DNA from: a virus
Reading direction: 5' to 3' (one strand)
IMG/VR virus record: IMGVR_UViG_3300038318_000399
DNA: 33,422 bases
The notes under the pieces were generated by a model. That model ran no database searches. It saw only the letters and a list, made by a program, of their open reading frames with translations, and had not been told where the DNA came from. Positions 1-33,422 of this stretch are shown piece after piece. The first letter of the stretch is position 1. Every line of letters starts with the position of its first letter. The position numbers and the translations under genes were made by a program.

Positions 1-65
1 ATCGCTGCGAGGATGAAACGGCTAGTCGATGCCGGCCGAGGGGATTTGGGGCGGTTCGCGGGCAC
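1..65 (-). CDS. 5' end (signal peptide) of spike gene, runs off the window
   Basis: GGAGG RBS, GTG start, MPANRPKSPRPASTSRFILAA identical to 23624-23688. Confidence 0.75.
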   Translation of the reverse strand, partial: MPANRPKSPRPASTSRFILAA

Positions 66-77
66 GCTAGCGCCTCC
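1..77. repeat. 77-bp exact direct repeat, copy 1
   Basis: atcgctgcgagg...ctagcgcctcc identical to 23624-23700; flanks diverge immediately after (tggg vs gggc). Confidence 0.97.
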
Positions 78-144
78 TGGGCGGGGAGAGGCTATGGGCG
101 GGGAGGTCGAGGGAGGCCCCGCCGGCAACGGGGTGCTGTGCGCG

Positions 145-160
145 CACATCATATGATGTG
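145..160. promoter_or_regulatory. 16-bp perfect palindrome, candidate operator
   Basis: CACATCATATGATGTG, upstream of the minus-strand spike start. Confidence 0.4.
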
Positions 161-7590: not shown

Positions 7591-8154
7591 TCAAACAACC
7601 TCCCTCTCCTTCGCACTCTCCGCAAGCTCCGACTTTGACGGCGTAGTGTAATGCTCCTGGATCGTCCGGAGCGTGTCCCCGATGATCTCCGCGACCTCCT
7701 CCGGCCGCCACCCGGCCGCCTGCATAAACTTGATCGCCGTCGCCCGGAGCGCGTGGAACGGCCTCTCCTCGATACCGGCGATCTGGCAGACCTTTTGAAA
7801 GCGGTTGTATGCCTGCCGGTCTTTGAACGAGAACACTGTCTTCTGTGCCTTCGGCTGCGTGTTCCGCAGGATCATAAGCTCTTGTGCGAGCTTCGGTCCG
7901 ATCGGGACCGCCCGTAGCCGGTTGCCCTTCTTCTTCTCCTGGTAAGTGACGGTCGCGCTCTCCGGATCCCGGATATCAATGTTCGCCCACTCGAGCCGGA
8001 CGATATCGGAGCGCCGTAGGCCGAGGGTGCAGCCGACCATGATGAGCACCCGATCCTCTAGGTTCTGGCAGGCGGCCAGGGCTTTGTCGTACTCTTTCCG
8101 GGTCAGGGCGTATTCGCCGGTTCGGTAGGGGGCGGCTTTGTTGTGCGGTTTCAC
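7591..8154 (-). CDS. int: Minimal tyrosine recombinase/integrase (catalytic domain only)
   Basis: LGLRRSDI (R), FHALR (HxxR), IIGD...QEHY (Tyr); GTG start after GGGGAG. Confidence 0.9.
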   Translation of the reverse strand: MKPHNKAAPYRTGEYALTRKEYDKALAACQNLEDRVLIMVGCTLGLRRSDIVRLEWANIDIRDPESATVTYQEKKKGNRLRAVPIGPKLAQELMILRNTQPKAQKTVFSFKDRQAYNRFQKVCQIAGIEERPFHALRATAIKFMQAAGWRPEEVAEIIGDTLRTIQEHYTTPSKSELAESAKEREVV

Positions 8155-8167
8155 TCTGTTCTCCCCT

Positions 8168-8575
8168 CTACTCCGCACAGAAGGCCCCTAAGTCGGCCTG
8201 CCGCTGTTCTGCTTTTGCGCCGGCCGCTTTCCGGGCTCGCCGCTCCTGGTCGGTCGGATAGAGGATCAGCTTCCCCGTCTCGGAGTTAAACCAGACACTC
8301 CCATTTGACCCGCTCGCCATGTCGTCGCCATCCGGACTGGCGGACCGGGTGATCGCACCCCGGATCTCTTCGGCGTCGATGATCATCCACCAGCCGCAGC
8401 CGGTGCAGTCGAAGTGCCGGAGCGGGTGACGTTCGCCGGATTGGGACTGTGAGATGTGCCCGTCACAAATTGGGCAGCGGTCGAATACAAACGGAATGTC
8501 CCGGGCTCGGGATACCGCTACAGAGAGCTCACTGAGAGCCCTGGCGATTGTTTCAGAGTTTCTTCTTCTTGCCAT
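8168..8575 (-). CDS. Zn-finger protein upstream of integrase
   Basis: CPICDG...CTGCGW. Confidence 0.7.
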   Translation of the reverse strand: MARRRNSETIARALSELSVAVSRARDIPFVFDRCPICDGHISQSQSGERHPLRHFDCTGCGWWMIIDAEEIRGAITRSASPDGDDMASGSNGSVWFNSETGKLILYPTDQERRARKAAGAKAEQRQADLGAFCAE

Positions 8576-15760: not shown

Positions 15761-16771
15761 TTATGCGCTCACTCCGAACCATTTCAGCACCCTTTCCCGC
15801 TCCCAGTGCTGCCATTTGCCCCGATTGATACCGGCCTCTTTCAGGGCCTCGTTGTGACTCATACCCCCTAGCCTATACTGCTCATAGAGGGGGAGTTTTA
15901 CTTGGGCGGTTCTGTACATCTCTTTCGTCCTCGGGTGGAACCTCGCCCACTCTGGGTGGTCGGAGAGCCCCTCTTCGTAATCGTCCGAGGAGGGATCCCC
16001 GCCAGCCGCCTCGCCGCTCTGTGATCGGGCGGCAATGATCCTCTGAGTAGTCTCCTGCCGGATCTTGTCATACTGCTCTGCCAGGAACTTCGGCGGCTGG
16101 GCGATCACATGCTTGACGATCTTCTCTCCCGTGGTTGCGACCAGGTGGGGGTTGATCCGGAGACTGTCCAGCCGGAAGATAGTTTTTGCCTTAAACACCT
16201 TCATCGTAGAGAGACCCTTGCTGAAACTGGAACTATCCATCTCTGCCAGGTAGTTGCAGAGCATCCGGGGCACTTTGTCGAGGAGGAATTGATTTGGCAT
16301 CGAAAGAATCTGGATGGTCTGCGCCACCCGGTTGATCTGGAAAATATCGTTTTTGTCCCGGTTCTCTTTCGAGGCGAAGGCCCTACTATTCCACCCAACG
16401 CCGATATCATCGAAGATATAGATGTTGTAGGGTTTCGCATGGGAGATGATCGCAGATGCCCGCTCAGGGTCGATGATAGCGACATTTGCCATGCTGAAAT
16501 ACTTGGGCCATTCCCGCCAGTCCTCATCCCGGATCTCCGCTATTCTTCGGGCCGTGTTGTAGGCGATACGGAGCGAGGCATACGATTTCCCGGATCCCTT
16601 CTGGCCCTGGAGGACCATAGCGATATCCTGCTTGTAGGGGCCGGTGATGGTCGAGGCGAAGCGGTTGGCGAGATAATCGTTGTCAGGGGTGCAGTATTTG
16701 GGCGCCGGCAGTATCGGCACCGGGTAATTACTCTGTTGGGCACAGTCCAGTACTGAGATCACCTGCATCAC
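15761..16771 (-). CDS. P-loop ATPase, putative genome packaging/morphogenesis
   Basis: Walker A GQKGSGKS, Walker B YIFDD; embedded in virion module. Confidence 0.85.
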   Translation of the reverse strand: MMQVISVLDCAQQSNYPVPILPAPKYCTPDNDYLANRFASTITGPYKQDIAMVLQGQKGSGKSYASLRIAYNTARRIAEIRDEDWREWPKYFSMANVAIIDPERASAIISHAKPYNIYIFDDIGVGWNSRAFASKENRDKNDIFQINRVAQTIQILSMPNQFLLDKVPRMLCNYLAEMDSSSFSKGLSTMKVFKAKTIFRLDSLRINPHLVATTGEKIVKHVIAQPPKFLAEQYDKIRQETTQRIIAARSQSGEAAGGDPSSDDYEEGLSDHPEWARFHPRTKEMYRTAQVKLPLYEQYRLGGMSHNEALKEAGINRGKWQHWERERVLKWFGVSA

Positions 16772-19458: not shown

Positions 19459-19713
19459 TCAAATCAACCGGCGGAGGATGATGAGACCGGCGATCAGCGC
19501 GATGATCACGAGCATCACCGGCAGATAGGAGATTAGGGAGATTGATGCACTTGATGCGTCTACAGTGGCGTTGTACTGATCCCCGTATGGGGAGTCCGTC
19601 ATGTTCGTCGCGCTGTCCGCAGCCCCGAGCGCACTGATGCCGTACGTGAGGCCGATAACCAGGGCGAAGACCACAAGGGCCGCCCCGAGGATGGTGTTGA
19701 GTCCAGATGCCAT
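19459..19713 (-). CDS. Two-helix hydrophobic protein, capsid candidate (84 aa)
   Basis: Two TM helices; loop sequons NMT and NAT; basic C-terminus. Confidence 0.75.
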   Translation of the reverse strand: MASGLNTILGAALVVFALVIGLTYGISALGAADSATNMTDSPYGDQYNATVDASSASISLISYLPVMLVIIALIAGLIILRRLI

Positions 19714-20712: not shown

Positions 20713-21076
20713 TCCCCTTCAGGCCCCGCCCGGTGAAGAACTGCACCACGGCGGCGAGGTAAACAAACCAGATCGGGCCCTGGAACATCATGGCGACGAT
20801 CGGATCTATGCCGTAGCTGGTCAAGAGCGGGATGATTGTGAGGGCAGTTTTCAGTGCCTCAAAGAATACGCCGCCGAGGGTGAACAGCACAGTGATCGGG
20901 TAGAGGGGCGAGGCCCCGCCCGATGTGGCGCCGGCAGTGATTTCCATCACCTGGGACTCTCCTAGGGCTATGTCGCTGCCGGGGAGCGCAGTGGTGAAGA
21001 TGCCGAGCGCGTTGACGCCTCCGACGACGAAGCCGAAGGCGAAGAGGGCTAATGCGATGGTATAGGCTCTACTCAT
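20705..21076 (-). CDS. Membrane protein (123 aa)
   Basis: Hydrophobic throughout; operonic after spike. Confidence 0.75.
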   Translation of the reverse strand: MSRAYTIALALFAFGFVVGGVNALGIFTTALPGSDIALGESQVMEITAGATSGGASPLYPITVLFTLGGVFFEALKTALTIIPLLTSYGIDPIVAMMFQGPIWFVYLAAVVQFFTGRGLKGSE

Positions 21077-23688
21077 TGATATCCCTCCTCCCGGTATCGG
21101 GTGACGATGACACCCACCACCCCGAGGGTGCTGACGAGACCAAGTGAGACTGGAGCGATGAGGCCGAGATCGTCGAGCCAGCCGAAGGCGTAGAAGAGCC
21201 AGCCGGCGAGGGCGATCACGACCACGCCCCGGGTGGCGCTGGTCGCGCCGAAGATGCCGCCGAGGAGCATGAGGCCGAACCCGGCGACGTAGATATACAG
21301 GCCGTCCGGGAGCGGGCCGAGCGGGACCCTAACACCTTTGAACGCGGCGGCGTAGTCTCTGTGGACGGTGCCGAAGTCAGGGTGCTCGGCTTCGAGCCGG
21401 ACGAAGAACGATTGACCTTTGTAGACGGAGAGGTCGAAGGTGTGGGTGACGTTGGCGTCGTTCGCTACGGTGTGCGAGGCGATGACTTCTTCCGGTGCCG
21501 AGGAGTCGGTGGTGTTCTGCTGCGTGACCTGGATACTGAGGCCCGTGGTTTTGCGGGTGGTGTCGTTGTAGTCGATATGGATGTGGCCGGTGTCGGCTTC
21601 AGTGCTGGTGGTGACGTTGATGTGGATGTCTCGGAGAGCGTCCCCGGCGTCAGGGAGGAGGGGGCCGCCGGCAGTGGAGATAATGATCGGGTAGGTGTCT
21701 TCTTTGGGGTAGATTTCGAGGGTTTGGTTGACGACATCGGGTTTATAGAGCGTGATTTGGTATTTGACGACCTCCACCAGCATGAAGTTGATCTCCCCGT
21801 TGGTGTCGGTGGTGCCGCTCATGAGCTCGCTGTTGATCGGGGTCGAGGTCATGTTGATGCCGAGCAGCCGCTCGATGATGTTGGTGGAGGGGGTTTGCTG
21901 GATCCCCTGGGCGGTGACGTTGACGCCGGGGATGGGGGTGCCGAGGAGGGTTTGCACGGTGAATTTGACGTTGTGCGGGGGATAGTTGGGCATCTCCGGC
22001 GGGGTTGGTGTGGGGGCGATGGCTGTCATCAGGACGGTGGCGGTAGTGGTGCCGGGCTTGTCGAGGTACGCGGATTGCGTCTGGGGGTAGTAGCCGCCAG
22101 CGGCCGCGGTGATGGTGTAGGGGCCGTAGTCGACGTTGAACGTCGCGGGGTTCTGGGTGCTCTCCTGGCCGTCGCTGAGGGAGATTGTGGTGTTGTGGAG
22201 GGTCGTGAGGTCGTCGGCGTCCTTGGCGGAGACGGTGAGGAGGAAATGCCCTTTGAGTGCGAGGTTGTGTTGGGTGGCGGTGGCGTCCACAGTGACGGAC
22301 TCGCTGAGGGCGTCGTGGAGGGAGGCGGAGGCGGAGAGAGTAAGGGTGCCGGGCGTGACGTTGTTGAAGAGATAGAATCCTGTTGATGACGTGGTTGTGC
22401 TGCCGTAGCCGTCGAGAGAGATGGTGGCGCCGCTGATCGGCTGCTGGCTGCCCTGGGTCTGGATGTAGCCGTAGAGCATGGATTTTTCGGGCTCGGTGGG
22501 GACGTCGGGCGGGGCGTCGGGGGCCATCCAGAGGATGATGGTCGTGCCGCCCTCCGGGACGCCGAAGAGGATCGGGGAGAGGAGCGTGTATCCCGGTGCC
22601 GTGGCGGTGGCGTGGTACTTAAGGTAGTCCGCTTTTTCCAGGCTGTAGGTGCCGGTGCCGCCGGGGAGGGTGGCGTTGACGACCTCGGTTTCGGTCCCGC
22701 CGGCGGCCGCGAGGATTGAGAGGTGGGCGTCGGCGAGGAGGGCGCCGGTTTGGGAGTTTTGGACGTAGACGGTGGCGGGGGCGTTGTCGGGGAGGGTGCC
22801 GGAGTCTGAACCGTAAACAGTTGTATTGTACCAGCGACCCATTACAGGTGACCAGATATTGACGATGTAAGGTCTGTGGGATTGAGGGAGTGATAACGAT
22901 ATATCCTCAATGCCGGAGGTGTCCGAGTACGGTACGGTTTTACCCTCCCCGATAATGATTACCCGGCTCGGATAGTGGTCGTCGCCAACCGATCGCAGGA
23001 CAGATAGATGGTCGGTATCGACCATCGGCGTAGATTGAATCTGGTGCCGAAACTCTACTATCTCGTTATAGGTCTGATAGCCCCGATAACCTATGAATTT
23101 CTCTCCCCCTGTTCGGTCACCCAAACTGACCGCCGGCAATCCAGCCTCATTTTTGCTGTAACGCCCATTGAAATAATGTATGCCGTTAACATTTGTCCTA
23201 TTGTAGTTTAAGCTAATTTGTACAGCACCGGTTTTGCCCGTAAACACATCATTGTCCCAATTATCAATAGCCAGCCACACGTACGTATTTTGACCGTCCG
23301 GGTCGTACTGATATCCAATGTCCCCAGTCCCGACCGTGACACTGCCGTAAGTTAGTGTCACCGACGTACTAGCGCTGAAAATCGTTGGGTCGTCACGAAT
23401 AAACGTATTATGATATTCCGGGTCAACCCAATGTATTATCGCCGTGGGGGTCCCGATGGTCTCAATCTGTTTAATCGAAATCGTATAAAAGTAAGCAGAG
23501 CCCCCCGTGTAAGAAGTGGCGTCAATATACGTATTATCACTCAAAATCTCATGGTCGTCGATGTCTTTTATAAAAATATCAGATGCCGTGACGGTAGAGA
23601 CTGGTAACAGCAATATAATTGCTATCGCTGCGAGGATGAAACGGCTAGTCGATGCCGGCCGAGGGGATTTGGGGCGGTTCGCGGGCAC
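21073..23688 (-). CDS. Large membrane-anchored surface/spike (adhesin) protein
   Basis: 871 aa; signal peptide, low-GC N-terminal domain, repeated beta-sandwich (carboxypeptidase-regulatory/PEGA-like) segments, many N-x-S/T, 3 C-terminal TM. Confidence 0.8.
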   Translation of the reverse strand: MPANRPKSPRPASTSRFILAAIAIILLLPVSTVTASDIFIKDIDDHEILSDNTYIDATSYTGGSAYFYTISIKQIETIGTPTAIIHWVDPEYHNTFIRDDPTIFSASTSVTLTYGSVTVGTGDIGYQYDPDGQNTYVWLAIDNWDNDVFTGKTGAVQISLNYNRTNVNGIHYFNGRYSKNEAGLPAVSLGDRTGGEKFIGYRGYQTYNEIVEFRHQIQSTPMVDTDHLSVLRSVGDDHYPSRVIIIGEGKTVPYSDTSGIEDISLSLPQSHRPYIVNIWSPVMGRWYNTTVYGSDSGTLPDNAPATVYVQNSQTGALLADAHLSILAAAGGTETEVVNATLPGGTGTYSLEKADYLKYHATATAPGYTLLSPILFGVPEGGTTIILWMAPDAPPDVPTEPEKSMLYGYIQTQGSQQPISGATISLDGYGSTTTSSTGFYLFNNVTPGTLTLSASASLHDALSESVTVDATATQHNLALKGHFLLTVSAKDADDLTTLHNTTISLSDGQESTQNPATFNVDYGPYTITAAAGGYYPQTQSAYLDKPGTTTATVLMTAIAPTPTPPEMPNYPPHNVKFTVQTLLGTPIPGVNVTAQGIQQTPSTNIIERLLGINMTSTPINSELMSGTTDTNGEINFMLVEVVKYQITLYKPDVVNQTLEIYPKEDTYPIIISTAGGPLLPDAGDALRDIHINVTTSTEADTGHIHIDYNDTTRKTTGLSIQVTQQNTTDSSAPEEVIASHTVANDANVTHTFDLSVYKGQSFFVRLEAEHPDFGTVHRDYAAAFKGVRVPLGPLPDGLYIYVAGFGLMLLGGIFGATSATRGVVVIALAGWLFYAFGWLDDLGLIAPVSLGLVSTLGVVGVIVTRYREEGYQ

Positions 23689-23700
23689 GCTAGCGCCTCC
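23624..23700. repeat. 77-bp exact direct repeat, copy 2
   Basis: Identical to 1-77. Confidence 0.97.
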
Positions 23701-24055
23701 GGGCGATCACGAGCAGGCAGAAAAGAAGCAAGCCGACTATGATCGCGTTTTGGGTGAGCCAGGCGATGATGGCATCGAGCAGCGATACGGGATCCTGATT
23801 GGTCGCGGACGGCTGGAGCTGCACGGTGTAAAACGCCGATTCGGATGAGTTGAGCTCCACGCTGGATGTGGTGTTCGCGGTCGCGATGAGGGCGCCGGCG
23901 TCGTCGAACAGTTTGATGTCCTGTTGCATCAGCCCGAGGGACTGAAAGTTTACGGTGATATCAGCAGCAGAAACGCCGGCACAGCAGATACAGCAGAAGA
24001 GGAGCAGCACCGCGACGAGCCGGGATGCAGGGTTATTGGGGGGGGTCCACCTCAT
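23690..24055 (-). CDS. Secreted, C-terminally anchored protein (121 aa)
   Basis: Signal peptide, NTT/NSS sequons, C-terminal TM plus RRR. Confidence 0.75.
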   Translation of the reverse strand: MRWTPPNNPASRLVAVLLLFCCICCAGVSAADITVNFQSLGLMQQDIKLFDDAGALIATANTTSSVELNSSESAFYTVQLQPSATNQDPVSLLDAIIAWLTQNAIIVGLLLFCLLVIARRR

Positions 24056-27660: not shown

Positions 27661-29406
27661 TCACAGAAAATCAGCCAGGGAGTACGGCCTCCCGGTGGCC
27701 GGGTTCACGTCTCCGCCGGTCGGGCCGGCATCATCGACGGTGGCTGTAGCTCCTCGGCGGTGCTCGCGGTAGATGTCGAGGGCAGATCGGAATTTCAGAT
27801 GCCCTTTACGCCGCAGGTGCTCTATCCGCCGCTCGTCGGCGGTCAAAAACGGCGGCACAGTGGGGAGGATGTTCTCGGTCAATACGGGCGGCGGCTGCCT
27901 GGTGCGCCGGTTTTTCCGGTCATACCAGGCCATCCAGCCGGGGATATCTCCGGCGGGAGAACAGAACGCATAGCGCCAGTATGACGGATTTTGCTCCTTG
28001 AGGAGCTTGGTTTTGATTCTCTGATACCAGGCATCTACCTCCTCCTCGACGGTGAGGCGGGCCGGGTTGAACCGGCGGGAGGCGCTCATGAAGTTTTTGT
28101 TGAGCGCCCAGTAGAGTTCGAAGCCTTTGCGGTCGTAGATCGCTTTGTTCAGGTATTTTTTGAGGTAGTCGCGGGGCGATTCGCCAGATTTTGCATCGTC
28201 GGGACGGCCGCCGGCCCACTCCCAGATGCCCGTTTTCGGGTTTCGATGCACGGCGAGCGCCTTGACGATCTGCCCTTGTCCGCAGCGGTTCCAGTCTGCG
28301 GATATCTGTTCGCGTTTCGCTACCCAGGAGGTGCCAAAAACAATAATGTGCATGTGGACGAGCCCATTTTCCATAAATTCGTTAACCGCGACGTATCGGG
28401 GGCGGAATGAGCGCCCTTGAGTTTCTTGGTCGATGTATTGCCGGAACTCGTCAGAATGGACGGAGGTTTCGATCTCCTCTTCGGTGTATCCTTGTTTTTT
28501 CAGGATCTTCTCGCGGGTGGTCCGGAGGTCATCGATAAACCCGGCCCGGGCTCGCTTGGTGAGCAAGGCCGTGTAGCGGTTCCAGGCGACGCTCATATGT
28601 CGGTTGGCCCGCCAGAGGGAGCCGTGCATTTTGGGATCGGTCGTCAGGGTGAGGAAAACGGCGTTGGAATAGTATTTTTCAGCCTCTACCCAGGCTGCCT
28701 CGTATTTGTCGAGCGCCCTGGCGGACCGGGACCAGTCGTTAAAGCGGGTCCGGTAGGGGAGGGTTTTAAAGTCCTCTTCTTTGGGGCTCTCGGCGTCCTT
28801 GTTGACAAGGACGATTGTCTTATCCTCGATTTCTTCTAGGTAGTAGTTGTAATAGTCCCGGATATCGGCTAATTTTGCCTTCAGAAGAGGGTTTACAACC
28901 GTGATCGGTTTGCCGGTCTTCGGGTCTACCCGGCCCGTATCGAGGCGTTCGAAGAGCCGCCGCTTGTAGTTCGGGAGGAAGTCGTTTCTGACTTGGCAGA
29001 GGAGGGAAGCCGCTTTGAGCCGGGTGAGGCTGCTCCTCTTCGGGAACCGCACCCACCGGGGGATCTCCTGTTCGGGCTCGTCGGTGTCGTACGGATAGCG
29101 GGTCCGGAAGGCTCCCCGGGCCACCTGTCGGGGGAGGGTATCGCCTTCCAGGGTGTCCGGGTCGCGGGGTAATTTGCACGGGTTTGAATTTTGCACCTGC
29201 CTTATCAAGTTAAGGCCTGTACTGGTGGGCCGCCACCACGTACACGGTTTTTCGTCCAGCCCGTAATCGGAAATGCCGCGTTCCGATATCAGATAGCCGG
29301 CAGATTCGAGACGTTTTAGGAATCGCCGGATGCGGTGATAGATCGCGTTGTAGCCCGTGAGGGGGTCGCCTGTTTCCCGGGCGATAGCGGCTCTAATACG
29401 GTGCAT
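27661..29406 (-). CDS. rep: HUH rolling-circle replication initiator with N-terminal wHTH-like region
   Basis: Motif I FLTLTT, motif II VHMHII, motif III YLKKY (two Tyr); GGAGG RBS before ATG 29406. Confidence 0.9.
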   Translation of the reverse strand: MHRIRAAIARETGDPLTGYNAIYHRIRRFLKRLESAGYLISERGISDYGLDEKPCTWWRPTSTGLNLIRQVQNSNPCKLPRDPDTLEGDTLPRQVARGAFRTRYPYDTDEPEQEIPRWVRFPKRSSLTRLKAASLLCQVRNDFLPNYKRRLFERLDTGRVDPKTGKPITVVNPLLKAKLADIRDYYNYYLEEIEDKTIVLVNKDAESPKEEDFKTLPYRTRFNDWSRSARALDKYEAAWVEAEKYYSNAVFLTLTTDPKMHGSLWRANRHMSVAWNRYTALLTKRARAGFIDDLRTTREKILKKQGYTEEEIETSVHSDEFRQYIDQETQGRSFRPRYVAVNEFMENGLVHMHIIVFGTSWVAKREQISADWNRCGQGQIVKALAVHRNPKTGIWEWAGGRPDDAKSGESPRDYLKKYLNKAIYDRKGFELYWALNKNFMSASRRFNPARLTVEEEVDAWYQRIKTKLLKEQNPSYWRYAFCSPAGDIPGWMAWYDRKNRRTRQPPPVLTENILPTVPPFLTADERRIEHLRRKGHLKFRSALDIYREHRRGATATVDDAGPTGGDVNPATGRPYSLADFL

Positions 29407-29838
29407 GTTTGCACCCTCCTTGAGGATAGGGTAGAGGTCGAGAGCCTGCCCTCCGGTGTGGAAGAGGAACGGCGTACGGGTTGCGTGCGGGGCAGCTAAA
29501 GATTCCATCCAGAGAAACCCCGCGCGATTATGATCAGAGAGGTTTTTATGGAGGGAATGATACTATCTTGTGCCGCTTTGCGGCGCGGGGGTGGCGAAGG
29601 GTCTTGGCAGATCTCACAACCCCCGCAACCATTTTGTATTGATACAATCTTCTGAATCCAGATTTCCGGCAGAATAGAGGCATTTATCCCTATCTTCCGG
29701 GATAGATACCCATTATAGAGTATAAAGGGTCTAGGCATAGACCTAGGGTATCTGCCAAGATTATATAAATGTGGCGATTCTCCCGCGTCTGACACAGAAA
29801 AGGGGCGATTTGGTCACCTTGATGAAAAATAAACCGAA

Positions 29839-30789
29839 TTACACCTCTAGTTCTGTCTCATATATCCCATCATAGAGCACGGTCCCGAGCCGGTCGCCTT
29901 CGGTGTAGTGCGGGAGGTAGAGCGGGCGGCTGTAGGTCCGGGTGGGCAGGACCAGGTAGGCCTCGTTGGTCTCCATCGCTCCCCACCGGGGATTATACTG
30001 TCGGAGTTTCGGTTCATCTCCCGTAAATTTCGCCCCTCTTCTGAGAAGGAGCCATTCGAACGAGGTCCGGACGCCTTGGAACAGCTGGTTCCATTCGTGG
30101 GTGCTGGCGATGATCCGGATCCCTTCGTTTCGAAGCTTCTGGATGTTGCGCCGGATGTAGTTAATGGCCCGGTTTTGTGCCTGCTTTTCGCTCTGCTCGC
30201 CGGCATAGCCGTATCCCCATGCAGGGCACACGTTGTGGAATTCGTCTGCGATCATCGCCAGCGGGCGGTAGATCTGCCTGCGGTGGGCGGCGTATACCAG
30301 GTCAATGAACATATTGCTGATTTCCCGGGTGTAGATCGTCGGGTCCAAAATAAACGGTTCGAATGACGCGATGTTGATACGGTCGGCCGTCAGGTTGGCC
30401 CGCCAGATGTCGCGGCACGAGGAGATGGTTTTGAACTCGATATCATACTCCTTGTGCGCGTTGATCTCGATCTGGCAGCCGGGCAGGGTCCAGACGGTGC
30501 AGGGGCCGAAATACTCCGCCAGGGTCAGAATCTCGGAGCCCTTCCCGAGGTCGAACCAGAGGATCGCCTCGTCGGGGGCATACTCCCGGAATAAATCGAC
30601 CATCCAGTATAAGCCCTGCGTTTTCCCGGTCCCGGTGCGGCCGAGGGTGCAGAGGTGTTGCCCGGGGTGCTGGATGAACCGCTTAACGAACGCCCAGTAC
30701 CACATCCGCGAGGCGTCGCTATCGAAGGGGAGCGGGGCCTCGTCGCCGTCGAGGGCGTCTACGCTCTGTAGGTCAAGTGGTCGAGGCAT
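29839..30789 (-). CDS. P-loop ATPase (FtsK/HerA-like), putative packaging/morphogenesis
   Basis: Walker A GRTGTGKT, Walker B MIADE, downstream R...STH. Confidence 0.85.
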   Translation of the reverse strand: MPRPLDLQSVDALDGDEAPLPFDSDASRMWYWAFVKRFIQHPGQHLCTLGRTGTGKTQGLYWMVDLFREYAPDEAILWFDLGKGSEILTLAEYFGPCTVWTLPGCQIEINAHKEYDIEFKTISSCRDIWRANLTADRINIASFEPFILDPTIYTREISNMFIDLVYAAHRRQIYRPLAMIADEFHNVCPAWGYGYAGEQSEKQAQNRAINYIRRNIQKLRNEGIRIIASTHEWNQLFQGVRTSFEWLLLRRGAKFTGDEPKLRQYNPRWGAMETNEAYLVLPTRTYSRPLYLPHYTEGDRLGTVLYDGIYETELEV

Positions 30790-30948: not shown

Positions 30949-31371
30949 TCATTCGCCCCGCCTCCGGATGGCCGGGCTCGGCATCGCAGCGCCTTCGATA
31001 TCCTCCTTCGAACAGAGGTTATACTTCTCGATCAGGGTGACGAGGGCCGTCCGGATCTCCCGGAGCGTGGTCTCGAACGTGGCCGCTTTTCCGTGGGTGT
31101 GGATGTCGTAATCGAGGATCGGTTCATACCCTTTCTCCAGAGTCACCAGATCGCCCAGCACCTCTTTTAATGCCGCTTCGATCTCCTCTTTGTCGGTGCC
31201 TTTCATGTTAGCCGCTTTCGCGGCGATATCACTGTAGAGTTCCCCGTGGAGCGTGAGCCGGAGCCGGATCGGGCCTCCGGCCGAGTTGGTGAGGGCCACC
31301 AGGGTATAACTCATGTGGTAGGAGATAGGGCCGAACGGCATTGAGCCGCCGGTGGGGGGGTTATAACTCAT
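30949..31371 (-). CDS. Hypothetical protein (140 aa)
   Basis: GGAGGGA RBS; ATGA coupling. Confidence 0.7.
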   Translation of the reverse strand: MSYNPPTGGSMPFGPISYHMSYTLVALTNSAGGPIRLRLTLHGELYSDIAAKAANMKGTDKEEIEAALKEVLGDLVTLEKGYEPILDYDIHTHGKAATFETTLREIRTALVTLIEKYNLCSKEDIEGAAMPSPAIRRRGE

Positions 31372-31778
31372 TGGTCGTTCCCTCCCTTCCACCAGTTCCG
31401 CGCCCGGGTGAGTATGCCGGGCTTGGAGTCTTCCACCGGGCCGGAGGGGGCGGACCCGAGCGGGCCGAGGTCGGCCGCCCGGCCGCGTTCGATGCCGATT
31501 AAGGCCTGTAGGTACTCCTTAACCCTCCGGCGGTCCACGCAGGGGGAGAGCTCTTGGTAGGTCTCGCACATCGCCAGCGTCGCCGGGCAGGGGAGGATCC
31601 CGGAGGCGTCCAGGGTGCGGTAGAGCGAGACCATGAACTGTTGCTCGCTGTTGAGCTCTGTCAGGTCTACTTTCGGGTTGGGGATGAGCGCCCGGACGGA
31701 TTCGAGCCGCTTTAGGCGCGGGTCGTTGTCCGATACGGACTTCTCGATAATCTCCTGTGCTTCTTCGGATATGGCCAT
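31368..31778 (-). CDS. Hypothetical protein (136 aa)
   Basis: GGAGGA RBS; positional analogue of 18362-18940. Confidence 0.7.
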   Translation of the reverse strand: MAISEEAQEIIEKSVSDNDPRLKRLESVRALIPNPKVDLTELNSEQQFMVSLYRTLDASGILPCPATLAMCETYQELSPCVDRRRVKEYLQALIGIERGRAADLGPLGSAPSGPVEDSKPGILTRARNWWKGGNDQ

Positions 31779-31780
31779 GC

Positions 31781-32239
31781 TTATCCTCCGTAGACCGATG
31801 CGGCTACAGCCCATCCAATCGCGGCCGCCATTGCCATCCCCATCAGGACGATGGCATACGAGGCGCTGCGGCTGAACATATTGCTGATGTTGGCCCGGTC
31901 GAACGCCCGGAAGAGGAGGGCGGGGGTTGTCTCAAGCCTGAGTGTTCGGACCTCGCCGGTGGTCGGGTCGGTGTAGTCAAATGGAGCGGTGAACGCTGCA
32001 CCCCACTCGAACCGGATCGCTGCGCCGGTCTTGGCGTCGAAGAGCCGCCAGTATTTTCCTTTGTCATCCTTGATGACGGCGGCCTCTGCTATGGGGCCGT
32101 ATGCCGTCCCCATCGCAAAATCTTTGGCCATGCCGTCCTCGTCTTTGAGGACTGCGAACTCTGCCGGTAGGCCGTTCCGGTCGAGCAGGACGCTGTTAAC
32201 GTTCTTGTAGCGTTTCAGGTATTTTAGGGGGTTTATCAT
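31781..32239 (-). CDS. Protein with C-terminal TM (152 aa)
   Basis: C-terminal AIVLMGMAMAAAIGWAVAA. Confidence 0.75.
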   Translation of the reverse strand: MINPLKYLKRYKNVNSVLLDRNGLPAEFAVLKDEDGMAKDFAMGTAYGPIAEAAVIKDDKGKYWRLFDAKTGAAIRFEWGAAFTAPFDYTDPTTGEVRTLRLETTPALLFRAFDRANISNMFSRSASYAIVLMGMAMAAAIGWAVAASVYGG

Positions 32240-32364
32240 CGTCTATCACGTCCTTTGAGTTGTGATCGTACGTTTTTCGTCGCTTCGTCGAGGGACTGCC
32301 CAAAGGCTTTCGCAATGGTGGTCCCGTTCTGGCATACCTTGATTTTATAGCGGTGCCGGTCCAT
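32236..32364 (-). CDS. Small basic protein (42 aa)
   Basis: MDRHRYKIKV...; fills gap with ATGA coupling. Confidence 0.45.
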   Translation of the reverse strand: MDRHRYKIKVCQNGTTIAKAFGQSLDEATKNVRSQLKGRDRR

Positions 32365-32370
32365 TTTCGA

Positions 32371-33246
32371 TCATCCCAGGGGGTTGAGTGCGTTGATGAT
32401 CCGCGTGATGATTGTTACCATTTTTTCAATGAGCCAGTACATGCCTTTAAATGCGAAAACGTTGTAATCCACCACTTTTTTTACGAACTGGAAAAAATCG
32501 CGGCTTTTGTTCGCGGCGTAGGTCATGCCGATGACTTCGAATAGGCCGGCGAAGAGCAAGAAATTTTCAATAAATATTTTCCTGAACACATACCAACCGA
32601 GCGATATCACCAGGTAGACGCCTTCCAGCAGGCCCCATAACAGGGCGAGCAGGTTACCCGGGGTTCCTTCGACCCGTTCGCTGATGGCAGCGTTCATATC
32701 CTCGATAGGCACCGTTGAAACGGCAATGCGGGTCTCCTGCGTTGAGGTGACCGAAACCCGGTAAATAATATCAGTGATAGCGGAGGATAGAGGGGTCCAC
32801 GCGCTCTTGCCGGCGGGTTGCTTCATCCAGAGGTGACGGCCGCCGTCGTCGTATACCCCATACTGGATTATATACGTCTGTGAGCCAAGAGAGCCGATGC
32901 CGAGCCATGTAGATTGCTCGTATGGGCCGGCGGTCTGGTTGCCCAGGCGATAGGTTACGATCTCGGAGGTCGGGCCGGTTGAGGTCCGGTTAATTTCGCC
33001 GGTGACGGTGCCCCCGTAGTCGTACAGAGTAAATTCTGTGATAGTGTCGGGGTTGAGGGTTATGAGCAGCTCCCCGATTACAGCGCCGGCGGGGTCGTAG
33101 GCGTTGAAATCAATTTGACGCGTCCACTCATCGTATGCGGTCGTTACGCTATCGGGCAGGTCCACGATGGTTACGGCCGCCGCAGGTGCGACGAGCACGG
33201 CCGCGAGGAGCACCAGGGCGATGAGAGGAACGCGTTTCATCGACAT
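32371..33246 (-). CDS. Secreted/membrane virion protein candidate (about 290 aa)
   Basis: Signal peptide, beta-rich ectodomain with NRT/NQT sequons, hydrophobic C-terminal third. Confidence 0.75.
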   Translation of the reverse strand: MSMKRVPLIALVLLAAVLVAPAAAVTIVDLPDSVTTAYDEWTRQIDFNAYDPAGAVIGELLITLNPDTITEFTLYDYGGTVTGEINRTSTGPTSEIVTYRLGNQTAGPYEQSTWLGIGSLGSQTYIIQYGVYDDGGRHLWMKQPAGKSAWTPLSSAITDIIYRVSVTSTQETRIAVSTVPIEDMNAAISERVEGTPGNLLALLWGLLEGVYLVISLGWYVFRKIFIENFLLFAGLFEVIGMTYAANKSRDFFQFVKKVVDYNVFAFKGMYWLIEKMVTIITRIINALNPLG

Positions 33247-33422
33247 CACCACTTCACCATGAGTTTGAGCAAGCCCAGCAGCAGGCAGATCAGCGCCAGC
33301 GCCCCGATGCCCTCCGCGTTATCGGCGATCATGTCTATGACAGCCTGCCCTTTCTGCTCATTTGTGCGCCGGTCGGGGGTGGGGGTGGCCCCCGGGTCGC
33401 CGGGAGTCTCGCCGGGGCCGGG
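33246..33422 (-). CDS. 3' end of a membrane-anchored surface protein (partial)
   Basis: PGETPGDPGATPTP linker then GIGALALICLLLGLLKLMVKW stop. Confidence 0.7.
   Translation of the reverse strand, partial: PGPGETPGDPGATPTPDRRTNEQKGQAVIDMIADNAEGIGALALICLLLGLLKLMVKW

Follow-up and report, generated by a model that had tools for sequence, protein, structure and literature searches.

A 33-kb metagenomic contig as a probable assembly walk through two methanogen viruses that share a spike-gene start

Introduction

The viral contig IMGVR_UViG_3300038318_000399, a stretch of 33,422 nt referred to here as the window, raises the question of how many genomes it holds and how they came to lie on one sequence. 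Its first 77 bases recur inside it, and this repeat, R, divides it into a left part, A, and a right part, B. The initial annotation, made from the sequence alone, proposed that two distinct viruses share the 5′ end of a spike gene and are joined there, either by the assembler or as a co-integrate, a helper/satellite pair or co-infecting relatives. The spike relatives described below come from digester and fermentation metagenomes and one metagenome-assembled genome (MAG) of the Methanomicrobiales, a group with very few described viruses.

The shared segment R and the adjoining leader

R is a minus-strand feature present in two copies, at window 1-77 and 23624-23700, which are exactly identical as initially annotated; the identity breaks at base 78 (T) against base 23701 (G), and the flanks past the break are unrelated. 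The chance expectation for an exact 77-mer repeat within 33 kb is arithmetically ~1e-38, and R cannot be attributed to chance. It is the sole direct exact repeat of at least 25 nt between parts A and B; the other exact stretch common to both is an inverted 38-mer (5800 versus 25247). The left copy begins at contig base 1, and the sole observed edge of the shared stretch is therefore 77|78; 77 nt is a lower bound for the shared length, and the identity may run deeper into the spike gene. The exact R has no match in the viral, metagenome or genome contig collections.

Read along the minus strand, R comprises three Arg codons and the TAG stop of an upstream frame, one further base, a GTG start (23688 in the right copy, 65 in the left copy) and 21 codons; a GGAGG ribosome-binding site (RBS) lies inside the Arg-codon/TAG-stop segment, one base before the GTG. 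The 21 codons translate to MPANRPKSPRPASTSRFILAA..., a charged n-region followed by the first half of a signal-peptide hydrophobic core. The earlier statement that R encodes the RBS and signal peptide of the spike is thus borne out for the RBS and the GTG start; of the signal peptide, R holds the n-region and half of the hydrophobic core. The left copy carries the RBS, the GTG and the first 21 codons of a spike whose body lies beyond the contig start; the right copy joins the stop of a small membrane-protein gene of B to the start of the spike of A.

The stretch upstream of the left copy (78-160, minus strand) is an A-type leader, which is conserved together with an R-like start in the related contigs L019, L013 and L025. 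Identity is 86% in L019, where it continues past base 78 down to ~44, and 94.7% in L013:7730-7802; the base composition of the stretch, the non-coding leader of A, is not of coding type. A perfect 16-nt palindrome, CACATCATATGATGTG, lies at 145-160 with GCGCGC on its flanks and is kept upstream of the spike gene in L004-L007, L019 and L025; it is a candidate operator or promoter element.

Genome A and its closure

The unique part of A (78-23623) plus one copy of R forms a 23,623-bp circle (78-23700). Homologs of the spike protein were found at 31 loci. Twelve distinct contigs from at least eight other datasets have a homolog of window ~44-150 at a distance of 1.0-2.5 kb from the conserved core of the spike, the same arrangement as in the proposed circle, in which the leader-to-core distance is 0.9-1.8 kb; these 12 contigs then run on into the downstream genes of A. 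Sequence of B is absent from the closure junction in all 12, and B-side matches in A-type contigs are limited to small cassette genes, which A has too. One relative, L005, comes from a contig of 28.3 kb and aligns in unbroken order to window 12078->23623|130->7196 at a nucleotide identity of up to 92%. The proposal that bases 1-23623 close into a circle is supported by the leader-spike synteny of the 12 contigs, by B never lying between and by the colinearity of L005; as judged from closure synteny in 12 independent contigs, A is a real circular genome type.

A tyrosine integrase catalytic domain is encoded on the minus strand of A at 7591-8178 (Pfam PF00589, E 3.5e-15; phrog_1). The domain is only 195 aa and overlaps by 11 nt an upstream 135 aa ORF (8168-8575) with a homolog in L020 at 52%; the integrase in window 7591-8575 could be split, frameshifted or organised as two ORFs. 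The ATPase of A (15761-16771, minus strand) is DnaA-like by PHROG (phrog_5484, E 8.5e-7), and A further encodes a DUF3560/primase-like protein and a block of membrane proteins headed by the 871 aa spike. The sole match of the window in the phage collection is to the Methanoculleus virus Blf4/L4768, at 90% identity, and falls on a small cassette gene. There is no tRNA gene in the window; most small ORFs of A and B have no annotation in Pfam and PHROGs, and the viral contig collection, scanned with the spike and with the Rep and ATPase of B, returned no relatives.

Spike protein of A

The spike/adhesin of A is an 871 aa protein encoded on the minus strand at 21073-23688; its translation features a signal peptide, a CarboxypepD_reg-like β-sandwich domain (Pfam PF13620, E 6e-17) and three C-terminal transmembrane helices. 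Among relatives, the first ~230-300 aa are hypervariable and the central part is near-identical; the nucleotide homology of the 31 spike loci to A ends at window ~22500-22850. The G+C content of the region encoding the N-terminal domain (22805-23623) is ~0.51 versus 0.63 further in; this low G+C, together with the loss of homology to all relatives, fits a recently swapped receptor-binding domain. A distant homology links the spikes of the A type and the B type over their N-terminal halves (21% over 373 aa, E 7e-5).

A variable cassette slot is present between the A-type leader and the spike in L001, L003, L011, L015, L016, L022 and L030; it holds zero, one or two optional genes for small multi-pass membrane proteins (92 aa and 154 aa in L016). 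At the contig end of L008 (1-110), a 27-nt unit is repeated head to tail at least four times, ~350 nt upstream of a distant spike homolog.

Genes of B and related chromosomal proviruses

The first gene of B past the right copy of R, TM132, encodes a small membrane protein on the minus strand at 23690-24055 (or 24088); the protein is complete at 121-132 aa, with a signal peptide and a C-terminal anchor, and ends ...ARRR. The ORF just upstream of the right R copy is therefore not a C-terminal fragment. Homologs of TM132 (37-41% identity) immediately precede the spike gene in three proviruses, L045, L046 and L047, which are found in complete Methanomicrobiales genomes (L045:9444-17931, L046:3604-10534 and L047:4997-10378), one of them that of Methanoplanus sp. 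FWC-SCC4.

The rolling-circle initiator of B is a 615 aa HUH Rep (27661-29508, minus strand; Pfam PF23343, E 6.6e-8; phrog_3419), which matches ORF1 of HRPV-1/2/6 by tblastn (27.7% over 238 aa, E 2e-10) and phmmer (E 7.6e-19). B also encodes a P-loop ATPase (29839-30789, minus strand) with the Walker A motif GRTGTGKT, for which an Atlas feature search gives a HerA/DUF87-like lead only. The ATPases of A and B show no similarity to each other, and neither has a sequence match in the PDB or a match in the phage collection; homologs of the B ATPase with 44-48% identity are found inside complete Methanomicrobiales chromosomes, e.g. that of Methanoplanus sp. FWC-SCC4. A membrane-protein block follows on the minus strand at 30949-33252, consisting of proteins of 293 aa (32371-33252), 152 aa, 148 aa and 147 aa; L045-L047 have these four genes, likewise ordered, after the spike.

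The gene order of the three proviruses is a TM132 homolog, one spike of 501-663 aa, the homologs of the 293, 152, 148 and 147 aa proteins, and the ATPase. L045 has a Rep (29% identity) upstream, at one end, and L046 an integrase 61% identical to that of A; the virion genes of A are absent from all three. No clear att-like direct repeats surround the proviruses, the ends of which were not located. Window part B is a circular permutation of the provirus map, the proviruses being opened between ATPase and Rep and the window inside the spike gene. The proposed B circle would run from Rep through small cassette genes, TM132, the spike and four membrane or unknown proteins to the ATPase. From its gene content and that of the proviruses, B is an element distinct from A with its own Rep, ATPase and spike C-terminus. 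All three had been ascribed to the right part of the window initially and all three are present; the C-terminus, however, sits at 33246-33422 and not beside the right copy of R. The suggestion of a helper/satellite pair is disfavoured, as B carries structural-type genes of its own, with a full set of membrane-protein and ATPase genes.

The truncated spike gene of B

The C-terminal 58 aa of the spike of B, comprising stalk and membrane anchor, are encoded on the minus strand at 33246-33422 and are cut by the contig end. The fragment aligns to residues 447-495 of the 501 aa provirus spike L046:5414-6919 (43% over 49 aa, E 5e-15) and has no similarity to the spike of A. The proviruses have one spike gene in the position where the contig breaks, with the homologs of 23690-24055 and 32371-33252 on either side; this gene order and the match at the right end indicate that the spike gene of B starts at R and ends at 33246. 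The missing interior is predicted to be about 420-580 codons, or about 1.3-1.75 kb. This would make B a circle of some 11-11.5 kb, or 11.1-11.5 kb by the codon count, a size matched by an 11,436-nt contig that carries a homolog of the provirus spike. The right end of the contig lies in a GC-rich Pro/Gly linker of the spike of B, and assembly of the gene would therefore have broken off at either side. No second copy of the last 31 bases exists in the window, and so there is no sign of B rejoining A within the contig.

Junction types in other contigs

Both junctions flanking R recur in contigs of other samples. The A-type junction, a leader followed by an R-like start, is present in L019 and L013; the B-type junction, an anchor ending ...ARR[R/H], a stop and a start encoding MPAN[R/H]P, is present in L016:999-1084, where one natural molecule combines the 3′ end of a TM132-like gene with an R-like start and a spike of the A family. 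L013, a 29-kb contig with a Rep 81% identical in amino acid sequence to that of B and a backbone unlike A or B, has both junctions in tandem at 7681-7802: the stop of an upstream membrane-protein frame precedes the first ~45 nt of a spike gene like that of L016, after which come ~60 nt of A-type leader and another spike start. After this second start the N-terminal domain is different, and homology to L016 returns in the central part of the protein. The crossover in L013 lies at GCCGGC, a hexamer common to R (32-37) and the leader (121-126); homology to A is lost near 112-144 in many relatives. The tandem looks like the footprint of a replacement of the spike N-terminal domain that brought its own leader, as read from the order of these segments.

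The spike family, or parts of it, is present in at least three backbones, namely the A type, the B type and the L013/L020 type. The shared spike 5′ end probably goes back to a recent homologous exchange during co-infection of a Methanoculleus-like host. Together with the footprints of exchange in other samples, it suggests that host-recognition modules move across families of Methanomicrobiales viruses.

Origin of the A-B join

The contig is probably an assembly walk through two replicons rather than a natural join. The length of R, 77, is a SPAdes default and a common de Bruijn k-mer size; we infer that the assembler worked at k = 77 and that A and B were separate molecules in the sample. At this k, an identical stretch of at least 77 nt would be one graph vertex, with exits into the leader of A and into the membrane-protein gene of B. 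A path could leave the R vertex, run around A, return to the vertex and pass out into B, ending 58 codons before the end of the spike of B, the interior of which would not have assembled. Were that interior absent from the graph, a walk from B backwards would enter A, circle it, return to the vertex and stop; such a walk would yield exactly the order R, A, R, B that the contig has. An assembler with spanning reads would normally stop once A had closed, and the extension into B would reflect either a missing in-edge of B or some reads supporting the passage from the end of A to B.

Two marks of an assembly artefact were looked for. One copy of the repeat does lie exactly at the contig terminus, its identity ending abruptly; flanks belonging to separately existing replicons were found as well, in relatives rather than in the sample itself. 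A related JGI contig, L002, starts with a 99-nt exact copy of a stretch internal to its own spike gene, its bases 1-185 being 98.4% identical to 805-989 over 185 nt. This looks like a walk through strain variants at k = 99, and indicates that k-sized terminal duplicates do arise in assemblies of the spike gene. The mixed molecule L016 counts against an assembly walk, as it shows that the local order at 23600-23760 is not unnatural.

The same graph would be produced by a physical co-integrate, in which homologous recombination at the spike start had created a circle of ~35 kb with each spike body under the upstream region of the other virus; the order of the contig would then be true and would lack only the interior of the spike of B. 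That order itself favours such a molecule, as do the distant homology of the A- and B-type spike N-terminal ectodomains and the tandem junctions and B-like Rep of L013, which imply that recombinants between the two contexts occur. The footprint in L013, however, resembles domain replacement rather than co-integration; moreover, the contig ends exactly at the repeat and does not continue into the spike body of B, and none of the 12 A-type relatives or the three B-type proviruses is joined to the other type. A co-integrate is considered rather unlikely on these grounds. If the join is physical, the spike start would be a shared homology arm for swaps of receptor-binding domains across virus families of the Methanomicrobiales; that A and B are physically joined at a portable spike start of this kind, with L013 as a resolved product, is also deemed unlikely.

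The window taken by itself is compatible with one larger genome in which two spike genes have the same 5′ end, the second lying to the left of base 1 and thus outside the window, and in which A is not a circle. This duplicated leader is hard to reconcile with the relatives, in all of which the A-type leader is followed at 1.0-2.5 kb by an A-family spike core and the downstream genes of A, with the colinearity of L005 over the whole circle and with the gene order of B, which requires a spike from R to 33246; it is given little credence. Even less probable is a site-specific insertion of A into B by a tyrosine integrase, with R as a duplicated att core. A does encode an integrase and is flanked by direct repeats; R, however, is a functional translation start with a signal peptide in both contexts, and each junction type is kept in relatives that have no copy of the other element, with homology crossing the repeat boundary. 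One copy, of exactly 77 nt, lies exactly at the contig end, and a tRNA gene is lacking. Both junctions are ordinary conserved gene contexts, and R was rejected as an att core.

Implications

With the assembly walk as the preferred reading, the contig most likely consists of a complete 23.6-kb circular methanogen virus and most of an unrelated ~11-kb virus. It ought not to enter counts or classifications as a single virus of 33 kb and is better split into a complete genome of 23,623 bp and a partial genome of ~11 kb. Two unrelated mobile-element backbones of methanogens have an identical translation start and signal-peptide segment on their spike genes, and footprints of exchange at the same spot at the spike start are preserved in contigs of other samples. 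A group of chromosomal proviruses with a pleolipovirus-like gene order is also revealed in the Methanomicrobiales.

Comparison with known systems

De Bruijn assemblers are known to leave terminal k-mer overlaps on circular contigs and to follow chimeric paths where a repeat is shared. The window is like the artefacts of SPAdes-type assemblers in its exact repeat of a typical k, the terminal position of one copy, the abrupt divergence and the enclosed complete circular genome; it differs from the usual overlap of a circular contig in that the second copy is internal and the path leaves the circle for a second replicon.

B is like the alphapleolipoviruses HRPV-1, HRPV-2 and HRPV-6 in having a homologous HUH Rep and, when B and the proviruses are set against the HRPV-1/2/6 annotations, in the order Rep, small membrane protein, spike with a signal peptide and a C-terminal anchor, membrane proteins and ATPase; TM132 occupies the position of VP3. 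The predicted ~11-kb circle of B is inside the pleolipovirus genome range of 7-16 kb, and pleolipovirus relatives occur in methanogens (PMC13107129). Pleolipovirus-related methanogen proviruses are listed for the Methanonatronarchaeales and Methanomassiliicoccales only (PMC10919331), whereas the host lineage of the B-type elements is the Methanomicrobiales. In comparisons of profiles of 3-7 sequences by hhalign, the 293 aa protein of B gave 37% against ORF6, the ATPase of B gave 12.7% against VP8, over the Walker A motif only, and the provirus spike gave no signal to VP4/VP5; BLASTP likewise gave no significant match of the ATPase to VP8 or of the provirus spike to VP4/VP5. AlphaFold models the provirus spike poorly (mean pLDDT 55.8), as a string of β-sandwich adhesin-like domains; Foldseek with this poor model returned generic β-sandwich adhesins at a TM of ~0.15, with no pleolipovirus spike among the matches listed. 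B resembles an alphapleolipovirus in its Rep and gene order, with sequence homology to pleolipoviruses seen only for the Rep.

A has features in common with the spindle-shaped viruses His1 and SSV1, namely a DnaA-like ATPase (phrog_5484), an integrase and an 84 aa protein with two hydrophobic helices (19459-19713) that is like His1 VP21 in size and layout. The small membrane proteins of A have no significant hhalign match to His1 VP21, at a probability of 4-6% with shallow profiles of five sequences. Spindle-type contigs have been linked to methanogens, one of them being assigned to Methanoculleus by a spacer match (PMC9796341).

The spikes themselves are like the host-recognition modules of mosaic phages, as one spike family is present in several backbones with a hypervariable N-terminal domain and a near-identical centre. 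Mosaic exchange of host-recognition genes between unrelated phages is a form of modular evolution; the elements described here differ from those phages in being non-tailed archaeal elements rich in membrane proteins, and in having one breakpoint exactly at the RBS of the gene.
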